NCBI GenBank assembly: GCA_963831895.1
Contig: CAWHSD010000016.1
Location: 62,638-126,637, forward strand
DNA length: 64,000 nt
Direction: 5' to 3'
From: Candidatus Bathyarchaeota archaeon
Lineage (GTDB): Archaea; Thermoproteota; Bathyarchaeia; Bathyarchaeales; Bathycorpusculaceae
Shown here: in pieces, positions 11,948-18,316 of the stretch
How the letters are laid out: every line of letters starts with the position of its first letter
How positions within the stretch are numbered: position 1 is the stretch's first letter
Translations under genes and position numbers: made by a program
Notes under the pieces: generated by a model
Seen by the model: the letters and a program-made list of their open reading frames with translations, nothing else
Database searches by the model: none
Told to the model about the DNA's origin: nothing

Positions 11948-12650
11948 ATGTCGTTAATCCCTGAAATCCCCAATCCATATCTTGGAGCGTTTGCAGGCGG
12001 CTTGCTGTATGGATTTGCAGTTTGCACGGCATCATGTCTTCCTGTTGTTACAAGTTATATTGCAGGGGTCGGCGCTGGTTTCAGAAAGAGGTGTCAAACT
12101 GACGTTGATTTTCAATTCTGGAAGAGTTTTGGCCTATGCGTTGATTGGTGGTCTTATAGGGTTGTTCAGCGGTTTGTTTAGGCTATTTATTTCTGAAGCA
12201 ACCATTGCACCATTTCAAATTTACTCATCGCTTGCATTCGGAATAGTGACAATAGTTATAGGAATTAGCATTTTTCTTAAAGCCAGAAAACCCTGCGACT
12301 GCAAAACCCAAGACACAAAAAACATGGTTACTGCACACAAAATAGGCAGATTCGGTTTTGATGTTGGTGCTTTCTCACTTGGTTTAACCAGAGGATTAAT
12401 CGTGTGTCCACCATTAATTGCACTTTTGATTTATTCATTGCCTTTCGCTAATCCGCTTGGCAGCGTTGGAATAGCTGTGCTATTCGGGTTAGGAACAGCG
12501 CTCTCACCAATTCTATTATTGGGCGGAGTCACAGGATGGCTTTTGAATAAAGCGCCACTTTTTCGGAAATGGATTTCGATAGCAGGTGGATCCGCACTTA
12601 TTGTTCTTGGAATAATCACGATGGTGAGTTCATTAACTCAAATACCTTGA
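11948..12650 (+). CDS. DsbD_2 / TauE-SafE-like membrane protein with Cys motifs; +1 frameshift near 12088
   Basis: CTASC in ORF 11948, FNSGRVLAY and VCPP in ORF 11982; removing one base gives GFRK-GVKLTL. Confidence 0.8.
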
Positions 12651-12660
12651 CGTGTAAAAT

Positions 12661-13668
12661 ATGGCTGGAGAAATAATTGGAGACCTATTGCGGCTAACAG
12701 TGCTCGGGGGATTAGGAGTAGCTGGGGTACTCACCGTTTTAATTTGGAAGAAGAATATGGCCACACGGGTAACTTTTCTGAGGTTTGTTGTCCAAGCCAT
12801 TGCCGTTGCCGCTATATTCTACGTCCTTTCTTATACAATTCCGCCTATAACCGGAGGATTACCATCGATTCAGTTTGTCTATGTGTTAATTATTATTTTA
12901 TCGATGACCATTTTTTTAGGCAGGTTTTTCTGCGGCTGGCTATGCCCCTTCGCATTCATAATGGACTTGGAAAGCCTCCTTAGAAAAGCCTTAAAAATAC
13001 GTCACCGAATCATACCCGACAAACTAAACAAGATCCTCCACCAATCACGATATGTCATATTGATGTTTTTTTTGTTGTTGCCGATAGTTTTGTGGCTTTT
13101 AGATCCCCAGCCGATCATGGTTTCACCTTTAATGGCTCAACTCTTGGCAGGTCATTTCCGCCCTTACAGCATACTACTTGACCCGCTAATTCCTTTTATA
13201 GTGCCTTGGAAAGGACAGGTTATCTTGGGCCAAGTAAACCTGACATATCCTTATGCTCTGGATTTCATCACCTATTTAGGCACAAACATCGGACAGGTCG
13301 TAGCAATTATCTTTGTTGGATTGACGTTGATAGGTTCATTTCTAATTAGGCGTGTCTGGTGCCGTTTCTGCCCGACCGGCGTATCGTTGGGAGTTGTGAA
13401 CAGGTTTAAGGGGTTAAAATGGGCTCCCCTGCTTCACATCGAAAAAGATGAGGAAAAATGCACTAAATGCGGAGTCTGCAAAAGAGTCTGCCCCGTACAA
13501 GTTAACGAAGTGTATGAGCAGAAGGGCGGAAAAATACAGACCTCCCAATGCATGGTCTGCGCACGCTGCGTGGAAATGTGTCCATATGAAGGAACCTTAA
13601 AGGTTAAGATGGGTAACAAGACATTGTTTAAGTCAAGAAACTGGTTGAAACAAACAACGAGTAAGTGA
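12661..13668 (+). CDS. NapH/MauN-like membrane-bound polyferredoxin
   Basis: GRFFCGWLCP and RVWCRFCP motifs plus two CxxCxxCxxxCP; 4-5 TM. Confidence 0.9.
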   Translation: MAGEIIGDLLRLTVLGGLGVAGVLTVLIWKKNMATRVTFLRFVVQAIAVAAIFYVLSYTIPPITGGLPSIQFVYVLIIILSMTIFLGRFFCGWLCPFAFIMDLESLLRKALKIRHRIIPDKLNKILHQSRYVILMFFLLLPIVLWLLDPQPIMVSPLMAQLLAGHFRPYSILLDPLIPFIVPWKGQVILGQVNLTYPYALDFITYLGTNIGQVVAIIFVGLTLIGSFLIRRVWCRFCPTGVSLGVVNRFKGLKWAPLLHIEKDEEKCTKCGVCKRVCPVQVNEVYEQKGGKIQTSQCMVCARCVEMCPYEGTLKVKMGNKTLFKSRNWLKQTTSK

Positions 13669-15008
13669 GGAACATAGAAATGAATGAAACTGTTGGAAAA
13701 AAATACATGCCTGAAGTAACAAGAAAAGAAATCGATGAACTCAAAACCACAATGAAAGCTGCTTCGCAAAAGGTAATGGCTGAAAACATTGAACGCATGA
13801 AAAAAGCTGACCCCAAAAGACCCGAAACTATGAAATATTTTGATGAAATCTCAAACTTGTTTGGCAAACGACAAGAGGAGATTCAGGCTGAGAAAGAAAA
13901 GGGCAAGAAAGTTATCGGTTACATGTGTCTGTTTGCTCCAACAGAGTTAATTTTAGCATCCGGCGCCATTCCAGTCAGGGTAAACTCAGGCTGGTATGAC
14001 ACTTCTAAGTTAGGAGACAGAGTTGTACCCGTTGAGGTTTGCCCAGTCATCCGTTCAACAATCGGTGCAAAAATGATAGAGCTCTCGCCTTTCCTTGAAC
14101 AAAGCGATGCACTTATTAGTGTTCTTACTTGTGACGGCATGACCAAACTCGGCGAAATTTTAAGCGATTACAAAACCATTTGGGGAATGAACGTACCTCG
14201 AATTAAAGATTCAACTCAGTCACTTCGCTTCTGGAATGACGAAATAAAACAGATGAAAACTCGAATCGAACAGTTTACAGGAAATAAGATTACACGTAAA
14301 AATCTAAAAGAAGCCATCGAAATAAGCCACAGAGCAACAAAAGCGTTCCGCCGCTTGCAAGAATTACGAAAAGGGCCACCTGTAATTATGGGCAGAGATG
14401 CAATGTTGGTTAATCAAACGTTTTTATGGGATGATAAAAAGAGGTGGACAGAAAAAACCGAGGCTTTATGCGATGAATTAGACAAAAGAGTACAACGAAA
14501 AGATTGGGTTTGCGCCCCTGACACACCAAGAGTAATGATTACGGGCACACCTATGTTTTGGCCTGACAACTGGAAACTGCCAAGTCTAGTTGAGGAATCA
14601 AATCCGCAAGGCATTATTGTTGCCGATGAACTATGTTCAGGCGAAAGAATCCTAAACGACCCTGTTGGCGTCGATGAATGGTCAATGGATGACATGCTAA
14701 ACGCAATCGGAGAACGGTATTTGATGGCATCTACCTGTCCATGCTTCACTAGTAAAGATGGTAATGAAGATAGAATCAATTGGCTCTTAAATAAAGTTAA
14801 AGAATGGAATGTTCAAGGAGTGATTTACTATGTGGTTCGCGGTTGCATGCTCTACGCTATGGAATACACACGCGTCAAGAAGGCTCTAGACAAAATAAAT
14901 ATCCCAGTCTACTACCTTGACACCGAATATACCCGAGAAGATGTTGGACAAATGAAAACCCGCGTTGAAGCATTTCTTGAAATGTTAACAGCAAGAGTAG
15001 AAATGTAA
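13665..15008 (+). CDS. 2-hydroxyacyl-CoA dehydratase superfamily protein, probable double-cubane-cluster anaerobic reductase
   Basis: KKVIGYMC..PTELILASG, VCPVIRS, TCDG, ELCSG, TCPC, RGCML, TRVEAFLEM; Cys sets in both halves. Confidence 0.8.
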   Translation: MRNIEMNETVGKKYMPEVTRKEIDELKTTMKAASQKVMAENIERMKKADPKRPETMKYFDEISNLFGKRQEEIQAEKEKGKKVIGYMCLFAPTELILASGAIPVRVNSGWYDTSKLGDRVVPVEVCPVIRSTIGAKMIELSPFLEQSDALISVLTCDGMTKLGEILSDYKTIWGMNVPRIKDSTQSLRFWNDEIKQMKTRIEQFTGNKITRKNLKEAIEISHRATKAFRRLQELRKGPPVIMGRDAMLVNQTFLWDDKKRWTEKTEALCDELDKRVQRKDWVCAPDTPRVMITGTPMFWPDNWKLPSLVEESNPQGIIVADELCSGERILNDPVGVDEWSMDDMLNAIGERYLMASTCPCFTSKDGNEDRINWLLNKVKEWNVQGVIYYVVRGCMLYAMEYTRVKKALDKINIPVYYLDTEYTREDVGQMKTRVEAFLEMLTARVEM

Positions 15009-15017
15009 GGTGTACCT

Positions 15018-15803
15018 ATGATAACTATTGGAATAGACCTTGGAACCCAAAGAGTACAAGTAGTTGTCCTAAAAGACGGCAATGTTGCCTCTAGAGCACA
15101 AGCATTATCGGGTTTCGACCCAACCAAAGCCGCTGAACAAGCAATAGACGAAGCACTCAAGAAAGCAAATTTTAAACTTCTAGATGTAGCAAGTTTTGCG
15201 GCTACTGGTTCAGCTGTGGATATGGCTCCTTACGCCGCTAGCACTGTAAGTATGATGAGCGCAGACGCAAAAGCAGGAGTATTTCTATTTCCTAAAGCTC
15301 GCACAATTATCGATGTCGGCGCAGAAGAAGCAAGAGCTGTAAAATGTGACGAGAGGGGCATTATGGTTGATTTTGTCGTCAACGAACGATGCGCCGCGGG
15401 AGCAGGAGCATTCATCGAAGCGATGGCAAGAGCATTAGAAGTGAAATTGGAAGACATGGGTCCGCTGGCACTTAAGGCGGAACGGGCAAGCCCCATTAAT
15501 GCTTCGTGTGTAATTTTTGGGGAATCAGACGTGGTTTCTCTCATACATCGGCAAGAATCCAAACCCGAAATTGCTCGTGCAGTCTACGATGCAATGGCTG
15601 ATCGAATTTCATCTATGGTTCATAGATTAGGATTAAACCCTGACATTATTTTAGTCGGTGGCGTCGCAAAAGATGTAGGTTTTGTTGCGTCTTTGAATCG
15701 AAAACTAGGCGTTACAGTAATGATCCCTGATTACCCCGAATATGCAGGAGCTTTGGGTGCGGCAATTATTGCAGCAACACGTACAAAAGAGGGCCAAAAA
15801 TGA
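15018..15803 (+). CDS. ATP-dependent electron activase subunit (ASKHA; BzdP/BcrD-like)
   Basis: GIDLG, IDVGAEE, NERCAAGAG, NASCVIFGESDVVS. Confidence 0.88.
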   Translation: MITIGIDLGTQRVQVVVLKDGNVASRAQALSGFDPTKAAEQAIDEALKKANFKLLDVASFAATGSAVDMAPYAASTVSMMSADAKAGVFLFPKARTIIDVGAEEARAVKCDERGIMVDFVVNERCAAGAGAFIEAMARALEVKLEDMGPLALKAERASPINASCVIFGESDVVSLIHRQESKPEIARAVYDAMADRISSMVHRLGLNPDIILVGGVAKDVGFVASLNRKLGVTVMIPDYPEYAGALGAAIIAATRTKEGQK

Positions 15804-16711
15804 AAGAAATGGGCGTAACAAAAGAAGCAGAGTTTTGGCGCTGGCAAGAATATCACCGTATCTTGCCAAACAAAAAATGGACAAGTAAAGATCTGATAAC
15901 CGCTGGAGTTGACGTTGGGTCAGTAGGTTCTAAAGCAGCCATCATGATAAACGGCGAAGCATATTCATGGGGAATAACTCGCACAGGATCTAACAGTCCT
16001 GAAAGCGCTACAAAAGCTCTCGAATACGCACTCGAAGGCACAGGAATCAAAGCAAGTGACATAAAATACATTGTAGGTACAGGTTACGGACGAGTCAACG
16101 TACCCATGGCAAATAAAGCAATAACCGAAATTGCCTGCCATGCCAAAGGTGCAAATTTTATTTGGGGACCAAGCGTTCGGACAGTTTTGGATGTTGGTGG
16201 ACAGGACATAAAAGCAATTCGCATAGATGAAACGGGGCGAGTAGTGTCTTTTCTAATGAACGATAAATGCGCTGCTGGGACAGGAAGAGGCATGGAAGTA
16301 TTCGCAGATTTGCTTCAGATTCCAATTGAAGAAATAGGTGACATTTCACTTAAAGTTGAAAAAGAACCTGAGCCGGTGAGCTGCACTTGTGTTGCCTTCG
16401 CTAAAACAGAAGCAATGGGATTACTTCGCAAAGGCTGGTCTAAAGAAAAAGTACTTGCGGCTTACACACGAGCTATGGCGGTTCGAATGGCTAACTTAAT
16501 TAACAGAGTTGGCTTGGAGAAAGAACTTGTTGTTACTGGCGGCCAATCAAAAAACATTGGTATTGTCAGCAGAATAGAAGTTATACTTGGAGTGAAATGT
16601 CTTCCAACCCCAAAATGGCGAGATGAAGGAGCCTTAGATCCAATGGTTGCCGGCGCATTAGGTGCTGCCATTTTTGCCAAATCGCTCTACGAAAAGTCCC
16701 AAAAATCGTAG
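15800..16711 (+). CDS. ATP-dependent electron activase subunit (BzdQ/BcrA-like)
   Basis: EFWRW N-terminal extension, AGVDVGS, TGYGRVNVP, ITEIACHA, DVGGQD, MNDKCAAGTGRGMEV. Confidence 0.88.
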   Translation: MKEMGVTKEAEFWRWQEYHRILPNKKWTSKDLITAGVDVGSVGSKAAIMINGEAYSWGITRTGSNSPESATKALEYALEGTGIKASDIKYIVGTGYGRVNVPMANKAITEIACHAKGANFIWGPSVRTVLDVGGQDIKAIRIDETGRVVSFLMNDKCAAGTGRGMEVFADLLQIPIEEIGDISLKVEKEPEPVSCTCVAFAKTEAMGLLRKGWSKEKVLAAYTRAMAVRMANLINRVGLEKELVVTGGQSKNIGIVSRIEVILGVKCLPTPKWRDEGALDPMVAGALGAAIFAKSLYEKSQKS

Positions 16712-16719
16712 GTGATTAG

Positions 16720-17007
16720 TTGATCACCTATTTTGGTTATTGTGACGGTTCAGGCGAATATTACATCATTATCGATTCAGACAAATGTAGCGGCTGTGGA
16801 AAATGCATTAAAAAATGTCCTCAATCAGCACTTAAACTTGAAACAGAGTTTGTTGACCTCGAAGATAAAACCGTGGCAGCAGTTAAAGAAGAGCATAGAA
16901 AAAAAATAAAGTACACTTGTGCTTCTTGCAATCCAGAAAAAGACAGCACCCCTTGCATTTTAGCTTGTGAAACAAAAGCCGTAAAATGTGTCTGGAACCC
17001 ACATTGA
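16720..17007 (+). CDS. 2[4Fe-4S] ferredoxin (Alvin-type insertion)
   Basis: CSGCGKCIKKCP and CASC-x8-CILAC; GYxDGSGEYYI N-terminus. Confidence 0.85.
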   Translation: MITYFGYCDGSGEYYIIIDSDKCSGCGKCIKKCPQSALKLETEFVDLEDKTVAAVKEEHRKKIKYTCASCNPEKDSTPCILACETKAVKCVWNPH

Positions 17008-17503: not shown

Positions 17504-18316
17504 GTGGGGAAAATAAAAACGAAAAATAAAAACATCGCAATATCTCTATTACTAATACTTATTTTATTTCCATTTTTCATTCCACCATTAGCTTCCGCTT
17601 CATCCAACAATCAATGGAACTTACACATAACAAGCCTAAATGGAACAACAATTAATTTGAGTTATGAAGATCTTTTGGCATTGCCTAAGACCACTGTTAG
17701 TGCAGACCTCTCATGCTATGGCAACCTCGTTTCTAGCGGGGCATGGGGAGGGGTTAGATTATCTGACCTGTTAAATATAGCAGTGATTGACCCATCCGTT
17801 GTAGGCATAGAGTTAACTGCTCAAGACGGATATTTAGTCAGCATACCAATCAACACAGCAATGAGCCCAGACGTTATTGTTGCTTATGACTTAGATGGCT
17901 CACAGCTAAACGAAGTTCTTCGTTTAGTAGTTCCTGATGCAAATGGCAACATTTGGATAGCTGGCATAACTTCAATAGAGATGAGTGCATCTTCGGTTGA
18001 TCAAAGCCAGTCAGGAACTAGTGGACAAAACATAGCAAATCAATACCAAACTATAGTTAATACAACAACACAAGCTCCACCGCAACTACAAACTCCGGTT
18101 GAAATCCAATCAATCGTTCCAAGTAACGAGACAACCAATGAGTCTATTACGCCACCGACGATTGTTACTCTCCCACAATCTGAGCAGAAAATAACAGGAC
18201 AAATGGATTCAATTTCCCCATTTGAGTTCGTTTTGATTTTTCTTGGAGCAGCTGTTTTAGTTGTTGTGGTAGGTTTTGTCTTTTATAGTCGAAAAAGACG
18301 TTATCAGCTAATATAA
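17504..18316 (+). CDS. Exported, C-terminally anchored molybdopterin-binding-domain protein (sulfite oxidase/MsrP-like)
   Basis: Signal peptide; LSYEDLLALP, LSCYG, WGGVRLSDLL, AQDGY, LRLVVP; S/T/Q/P linker; TM + RKRR. Confidence 0.8.
   Translation: MGKIKTKNKNIAISLLLILILFPFFIPPLASASSNNQWNLHITSLNGTTINLSYEDLLALPKTTVSADLSCYGNLVSSGAWGGVRLSDLLNIAVIDPSVVGIELTAQDGYLVSIPINTAMSPDVIVAYDLDGSQLNEVLRLVVPDANGNIWIAGITSIEMSASSVDQSQSGTSGQNIANQYQTIVNTTTQAPPQLQTPVEIQSIVPSNETTNESITPPTIVTLPQSEQKITGQMDSISPFEFVLIFLGAAVLVVVVGFVFYSRKRRYQLI

Follow-up and report, generated by a model that had tools for sequence, protein, structure and literature searches.

Among ATP-driven reductases, the double-cubane proteins form a nitrogenase-like class that was discovered recently and has no known physiological role. 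In the double-cubane cluster proteins (DCCPs), the published motif reads C-x19-C-x18/19-C-x29-C-x166-170-C-x32-34-C-x32-C (PMC7317905). The seventh cysteine of this motif, Cys94, is a non-ligand that lies at the opening above the cluster and is conserved in classes I and II; the proposed class III DCCPs, found in Firmicutes, have six cysteines and are described as fused with the reductase in one polypeptide (PMC7317905). The DCCP N-terminal helices occlude the coenzyme A (CoA) funnel, leaving just two narrow channels (PMC7317905), and the reductase that serves the protein, DCCP-R, docks on the DCCP C-terminal helix (PMC9351452). A comparable [8Fe-9S] cluster is bound in BzdN by Cys36, Cys73, Cys100, Cys263, Cys293 and Cys327 (PMC11971306). 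Here we describe a gene of this family in a 64,000-nt stretch of DNA (hereafter, the window) from Candidatus Bathyarchaeota archaeon (contig CAWHSD010000016.1, positions 62,638 to 126,637 of the forward strand). The gene occupies window positions 13665-15008 on the plus strand and encodes 447 aa counted from its GTG codon; the Pfam HGD-D and NF040772 profiles and the fold matches support its placement in the DCCP family. Taken as a whole, the data are best explained by a divergent member of that family, which quite probably holds one [8Fe-9S] cluster, acts as a homodimer and reduces a substrate with electrons supplied by an ATPase.

Cluster ligands and fold of the 13665-15008 product

The plus strand is open exactly from 13665 to 15008 (GTG to stop), while the reverse strand is full of stops. 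Residue numbers throughout are counted from GTG 13665, which overlaps the TGA of the upstream NapH-like gene. Since homologues are mostly 442-443 aa long and a GAGG lies approximately 9 nt 5' of ATG 13680, the true start is probably at 13680, which would give a 442-aa product.

The computed cysteine positions are YMC88-x37-VC126-x29-TC156 in the N-terminal half and ELC324, TC358-P-C360 and RGC394 in the C-terminal half, with spacings of x37, x29, x167, x33 and x35 between the six that concern us. A sequence-only reading of this DNA had proposed two cysteine triads in a single chain, and this was borne out, as all the cysteines it listed were located and fall into the sets C88/C126/C156 and C324/C358/C394. 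Ligand identities rest on a 2020 review, for the seven-cysteine motif and the non-ligand status of Cys94, and on the ligands listed for BzdN; they were mapped via HMMER alignments. On the plus strand, ligands 1 to 3 are Cys88 (13926-13928), Cys126 (14040-14042) and Cys156 (14130-14132), which align with BzdN Cys36, Cys73 and Cys100, respectively; ligands 4 to 6 are Cys324 (14634-14636), Cys358 (14736-14738) and Cys394 (14844-14846), which align with Cys263, Cys293 and Cys327. In the alignment to the DCCP of Carboxydothermus hydrogenoformans, all six query ligand columns, and not just three, are occupied by Cys.

The same six positions are invariant columns in an alignment of 80 sequences with a mean identity of 34%. 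Each of them is Cys in 95-96 of 97 family representatives (50%-identity clusters) and in 120-121 of the 121 clusters of the orthologous clade. Judged from these columns and from a score of 318.5 bits on the Pfam HGD-D profile (PF06050), the cysteine pattern reflects homology and not chance. The other cysteine of TCPC, C360, is unlikely to be a ligand, because it is replaced by Thr in the BzdN alignment and is Cys in just 58 of the 97 relatives. The query spacing matches the published DCCP motif except for the loss of the second Cys and a three-residue insertion ahead of the last one. Around the cluster site, query Arg328 aligns with the cluster-facing Arg267 of BzdN and Arg105 with BzdN Arg53; BzdN Arg290 corresponds to Ala355, and BzdN His330 to Tyr397, a position that is Tyr in DCCP too.

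On this basis, C88, C126 and C156 of the N-terminal domain and C324, C358 and C394 of the C-terminal domain would together hold one [8Fe-9S] cluster at the domain interface, consisting of two [4Fe-4S] cubanes bridged by a sulfide, in a chain of ~50 kDa built from two homologous Rossmann-like domains.

The C. hydrogenoformans DCCP (CHY_0487; structures 6ENO, 7YYL and 7YZM) is the best match of the query in both sequence (~36% identity) and fold. A phmmer search of the PDB gave an E-value of about 1e-81 against 6ENO/7YYL (3.5e-81 for 6ENO), as compared to 5e-26 against BzdN and 2e-19 against HadC. An AlphaFold2 model built from the 80-sequence alignment reached a predicted local distance difference test score (pLDDT) of 95.4 and a predicted template-modeling score (pTM) of 0.93; Foldseek ranked 6ENO first for this model, with template-modeling (TM) scores of 0.87/0.92. 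Structural superposition with VIA-align gave a Z-score of 52.5 for 6ENO (2.0 Å root-mean-square deviation over 410 residues, model residues 22-441 on chain residues 8-420), 44.8 for BzdN and 43 for HadC. Both Rossmann-like domains of the DCCP fold and the class I N-terminal helices are present in the model. The assignment to a DCCP-type single-chain enzyme, made earlier from the cysteine pattern, is thus supported by sequence, profile, fold and ligand-by-ligand alignment.

The N-terminal helical extension (residues 1-50, with a helix at 20-48; 13665-13814, plus strand) superimposes on DCCP from residue 8 onward. It had been described as an extra segment of ~60 aa, which holds relative to BzdN and HadC, whose alignments begin at model residues 50 and 52, but not relative to DCCP, given the superposition over residues 22-441. 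What is truly additional compared with DCCP amounts to ~9-14 residues at the extreme N-terminus, a part modeled with low confidence (pLDDT of 52 for residues 1-10). The proposal that this extension docks partners found no support, as the DCCP equivalents are described as closing the channel and the reductase docks at the C-terminal helix. As the place of the CoA funnel is taken up by N-terminal helices of the DCCP type, the substrate is, by analogy, most likely small. The C-terminal helix of the query (residues 427-446, EDVGQMKTRVEAFLEML; 14943-15002, plus strand) is strongly conserved with DCCP, and its Q429 is invariant in the clade; by the same analogy, this helix is the likely docking site for the ATPase.

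Partner subunits and the reductase and dehydratase readings

The sequence-only reading had assumed a single three-Cys cubane in each of the BcrB/C subunits. This view is outdated, since BzdN holds an [8Fe-9S] cluster via six cysteines (PMC11971306). As BzdN also binds a double cubane, the six-Cys signature alone cannot separate a DCCP from a benzoyl-CoA reductase (BCR) subunit, and the decisive separator is whether a partner subunit exists.

The query genome (89.9% complete) contains only two HGD-D genes (PF06050), the query itself and a paralogue on contig 8. The BzdO model TIGR03191 gave only a 24.9-bit match in this genome, to the query gene itself, and the BcrB model TIGR02260 gave zero matches. 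In five relatives with genomes 96-100% complete, one of them a single contig, the orthologue is the sole HGD-D gene and is adjoined by exactly two ATPase genes. Pairing of the query and the contig-8 paralogue in a heterodimer, as in BzdNO, was considered and rejected, as most orthologue-bearing genomes showed no second HGD-D gene.

We infer that the query probably acts as a homodimer, without a second large subunit. The homodimer model had an interaction score (ipSAE) of 0.80, as compared to 0.00 for the best control, with at least 93% contact agreement between runs and a partner pLDDT of at least 90, although this result may reflect only likeness to, or memorization of, the DCCP homodimer, whose structure is already solved. 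Of proteins with solved structures, 20 of 30 one-chain pairs and 1 of 23 single chains attained this ipSAE mark. The predicted interface includes residues beside C126, C156 and C394.

Two other readings of the gene depend on a partner of this kind. In the first, an unusual or incomplete class I benzoyl-CoA reductase would have the query as its electron-storing subunit of the BzdN/BcrC type: BzdN (class I BCR, Aromatoleum/Thauera type, 8S02) and MbdN (9GAI) share the query's fold and its six Cys positions for an [8Fe-9S] cluster, and BzdN depends on a low-potential ferredoxin and on a heterodimeric ATPase of the BzdPQ type, much as the query is flanked by two different ATPase genes and a ferredoxin gene. 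The second of these ATPases scores 361 bits on the BzdQ model (cut-off 380) and has MbdQ as its best PDB match. Published annotations also point this way, with 'BcrC/BadD/HgdB' at JGI and 'BcrACD', BcrB not being detected, in the paper on Bathyarchaeum tardum (PMC10477458). However, the query falls far under the cut-offs of the BzdN model TIGR03190 (100.2 vs. 453.8 bits) and the BcrC model TIGR02263 (65.2 vs. 421 bits), its identity to BzdN is only 23-24%, and BzdN, which lacks the first ~50 residues, forms a heterodimer with the catalytic BzdO. No BzdO/BcrB-type catalytic subunit, with its [4Fe-4S]-OH2 site, was found in the query genome or in the five near-complete relatives, and the N-terminal extension sits where BzdN and HadC leave the side of the CoA funnel open. 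Growth of B. tardum is inhibited by benzoate, and aromatic ligases are absent from its genome (PMC10477458). We regard this reading as largely refuted and very improbable. It is scarcely credible that the query is the beta-type subunit (HgdB/HadC) of a 2-hydroxyacyl-CoA dehydratase and carries just one cluster, of the [4Fe-4S] or [4Fe-5S] kind: Pfam HGD-D membership, the NCBI name '2-hydroxyacyl-CoA dehydratase family protein' and the HadC fold match speak for it, but on the HadC model NF052456 the query reaches 104 bits where the cut-off is 700, there are six conserved cysteines and not three, the DCCP-type N-terminal extension is present, and no alpha-type subunit gene was found in the query genome or the five relatives.

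The DCCP assignment bears on how these genes are named. The names of close homologues assign the gene to Bathyarchaeia; public protein names include '2-hydroxyacyl-CoA dehydratase family protein' and 'BcrC/BadD/HgdB', and the ATPases are called 'benzoyl-CoA reductase subunit D'. The 'BcrACD' set of B. tardum, without BcrB, is the same gene pattern as that of the query and was read in PMC10477458 as a partial BCR. Misnaming of the clade (the query and homologues such as P0036 and P0113) arises because its members score 338-347 bits on NF040772, the NCBIfam model of double-cubane reductases, whose cut-off is 350. Such sub-cut-off scoring leads systematically to false calls of aromatic degradation in Bathyarchaeia. 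The label of a benzoate-ring reductase, in databases as in papers, finds no support in the sequence. Genes of this clade have been taken as signs that aromatics are degraded anaerobically, and their reading as DCCPs corrects metabolic reconstructions of Bathyarchaeia.

The seventh cysteine, the clade and the second copy

At the place of the non-ligand Cys94 of DCCP, the query has Asn107 (13983-13985, plus strand), which aligns with the Cys of the 'GLCGG' segment in DCCP and in the contig-8 paralogue. Position 107 is Asn in 117 of the 121 clade clusters and Ser in the other four. Among the 97 family representatives it is Cys in 64, so that about one third of the family lacks the seventh Cys. 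In a FastTree phylogeny of 101 family members, the query clade is monophyletic (support of 100) and sister to four seven-Cys proteins (support of 96), and at least 12 changes are forced at this position across the family. The tree and the seven-Cys sisters indicate that the loss is derived in the query clade and recurrent elsewhere in the family. It is fixed in this clade of Bathyarchaeia and independent of the loss in class III. On NF040772, the sister seven-Cys proteins score 338-397 bits.

Class III DCCPs resemble the query in keeping six ligands without the non-ligand Cys; unlike them, the query is not fused to a reductase and carries the class I N-terminal helices. It therefore fits none of the three DCCP classes proposed in PMC7317905. 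With DCCP CHY_0487, the query shares the six ligand cysteines, the two-domain architecture, the N-terminal helices, the C-terminal docking helix and the (predicted) homodimer, and in both cases an ATPase of the acetate and sugar kinase/Hsc70/actin (ASKHA) type with a [4Fe-4S] cluster is encoded next door. It differs in Asn107, in the three-residue insertion before the last ligand and in the additional N-terminal residues, as well as in its archaeal host, its score below the NF040772 cut-off and the presence of a NapH-like polyferredoxin and a ferredoxin in its operon. DCCP-R is encoded by one gene and forms a homodimer, whereas the reductase of the query is encoded by two different genes. At the protein level, this is an extension of a known family: a clade-specific six-Cys DCCP variant with a two-gene ATPase and a link to membrane Fe-S proteins. 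Having a full ligand set without a catalytic BCR partner, a two-gene ATPase and a replaced Cys at the cluster opening, it is a useful natural variant for questions on the role of the cluster and on how it is fed.

Across the 151 genomes of the class that were examined, orthologues with at least 68% identity were found in 11 of the 15 genomes of the window's family and in all three from a single genus that belongs to another family within the order. Elsewhere among the 151 genomes, only weaker relatives came up.

The second DCCP of the query genome (G000) lies on contig 8 (L003:8487-9809, minus strand). It is 37% identical to the query, has the same six cysteines and belongs to the same length class. 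It scores 494 bits on NF040772 and 509 bits against 7YYL, retains the seventh Cys and is the true copy of the C. hydrogenoformans type (DCCPCh-like), and it falls on a different major branch of the tree from the query. The paralogue was not found in most relatives bearing the query orthologue. It is located directly upstream of SelD (335.6 bits vs. a cut-off of 291; span L003:7368-9809, approximately 107,400-109,800 of the contig, minus strand) and beside a DsrE/TusD-like protein and two molybdopterin-oxidoreductase-domain proteins. No ATPase gene adjoins it. The only two BcrAD-type ATPase genes of the genome adjoin the query, so one pair may serve both DCCPs. Small Oxidored_molyb proteins are encoded within a few kb of both DCCPs, at 17504-18316 (plus strand) in the window and at L003:4868-6347 (minus strand), a link that may be coincidental because in relatives this gene is further off or absent from the locus.

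The operon, its ATPases and the proposed path of electrons

Five genes accompany the DCCP gene on the plus strand between 11982 and 17007, with intergenic distances of -4 to 10 nt. A DsbD_2-type multi-pass membrane protein (11982-12650; PF13386, 69.1 bits) is followed by a NapH/MauN-like membrane polyferredoxin (12661-13668; Fer4_5 and Fer4_10, TIGR02163 at 87.9 bits), in which several hydrophobic stretches, two [4Fe-4S] motifs and motifs of the forms CxxxCP and CxxCP occur, and whose stop codon overlaps the GTG of the DCCP gene. Downstream lie ATPase subunit 1 of the BcrAD_BadFG family (15018-15803; PF01869, 158.5 bits) and ATPase subunit 2, which is BzdQ/MbdQ-like with canonical motifs (15800-16711; TIGR03192 at 361.1 bits vs. 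a cut-off of 380.2; E-value of 2e-58 to MbdQ) and overlaps subunit 1 by 4 nt. The last gene encodes a 2x[4Fe-4S] ferredoxin of the Fer4 families (16720-17007; CxxCxxCxxxCP and CxxC-x8-CxxxC), a probable electron donor. A CARDB surface protein is encoded upstream of the operon.

The core gene order recurs in relatives at 84% identity. The DsbD_2 gene is present in the relative locus L006 and is not among the called genes in L007-L009. Adjacency of the NapH-like and DCCP genes is kept in relatives and in the 42%-identical seven-Cys outgroup P0125, where the NapH-like gene lies directly upstream. At the locus of the seven-Cys sister P0128, the DCCP gene is accompanied by genes for two ATPases and a ferredoxin; in the more distant relative P0129, the ATPase is the classical single one, and outgroup P0124 is represented by short contigs only, with no informative neighbors.

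The identity between the two ATPases is 31%, and both retain the two cluster-binding cysteines. In ATPase 1, the phosphate motifs are altered: DLGTQRV stands for DxGSTxSK, GAEEAR for GGQDxK and TGSA for TGYGR, and at least 98% of its clade (120 clusters) keeps these forms. The alterations suggest that the use of ATP may differ from that in DCCP-R, and the two subunits may form a heterodimer that is asymmetric, its ATP sites being unequal. The notion of ATPase 1 as a 'dead' subunit was rejected as unproven, since the catalytic Asp and the Gly positions remain and a Lys is present in the first motif in about half of the clade. At the sister locus L026 the form is intermediate, with GAENCR and a canonical first motif.

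In the proposed mechanism, low-potential electrons would come from the operon ferredoxin, or possibly from the NapH-like polyferredoxin, and would cross a [4Fe-4S] cluster bridging the heterodimer of ATPases 1 and 2. Driven by the hydrolysis of ATP, they would move on to the double cubane, where a small substrate would be reduced. Several points weigh against this account of an ATP-driven, substrate-reducing DCCP. The query scores 342.3 bits on NF040772 and so misses the equivalog threshold by 8 bits, the seventh Cys of classes I and II is replaced by Asn107, and the phosphate motifs of ATPase 1 are altered. The bridging sulfide is beyond proof by sequence, and two unbridged cubanes or a partly occupied site are possible. 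No DCCP has a known physiological substrate (PMC7317905). In BzdN the [8Fe-9S] cluster stores electrons and is not catalytic (PMC11971306), which makes catalysis at the query cluster an assumption.

In an alternative that we consider unlikely, the double cubane is a non-catalytic, ATP-charged electron store feeding the NapH-like and DsbD_2-like proteins and, through them, an acceptor at or beyond the membrane that is possibly linked to the CARDB protein. The end of the NapH-like gene and the start of the DCCP gene share 4 nt, and the adjacency of the two recurs in relatives and, amid surface beta-propeller/FG-GAP proteins, in the 42%-identical outgroup; the cluster of BzdN serves transfer and storage, and loss of the Cys at the cluster opening (N107) could suit a non-catalytic role. 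On the other hand, a NapH-type protein is equally plausible as an electron donor, DsbD_2 is missing from the called genes in three relative loci, and the closest sister locus, L026 (a 4-kb contig), contains the DCCP, two ATPases and a ferredoxin but no NapH-like gene upstream, its place being taken by one for a 168-aa Fer4 protein on the opposite strand. Were the storage role real, the clade could constitute a distinct double-cubane class, a low-potential electron reservoir membrane-wired to cell-surface chemistry (for example, the reductive processing of a CARDB-bound metal, metalloid or polymer) and not a reductase of soluble substrates, which we likewise hold to be doubtful.

Genes for large surface or secreted proteins also occur ahead of distant relatives of the DCCP. 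In L024 (5057-7386), such a relative is located behind PQQ/FG-GAP beta-propeller genes and a NapH-like protein, and in L027 (2997-6655), the gene for a GxGYxYP/CBM9 protein overlaps the start of another. The CARDB protein encoded upstream of the DCCP in the window follows the same pattern as these neighbors.

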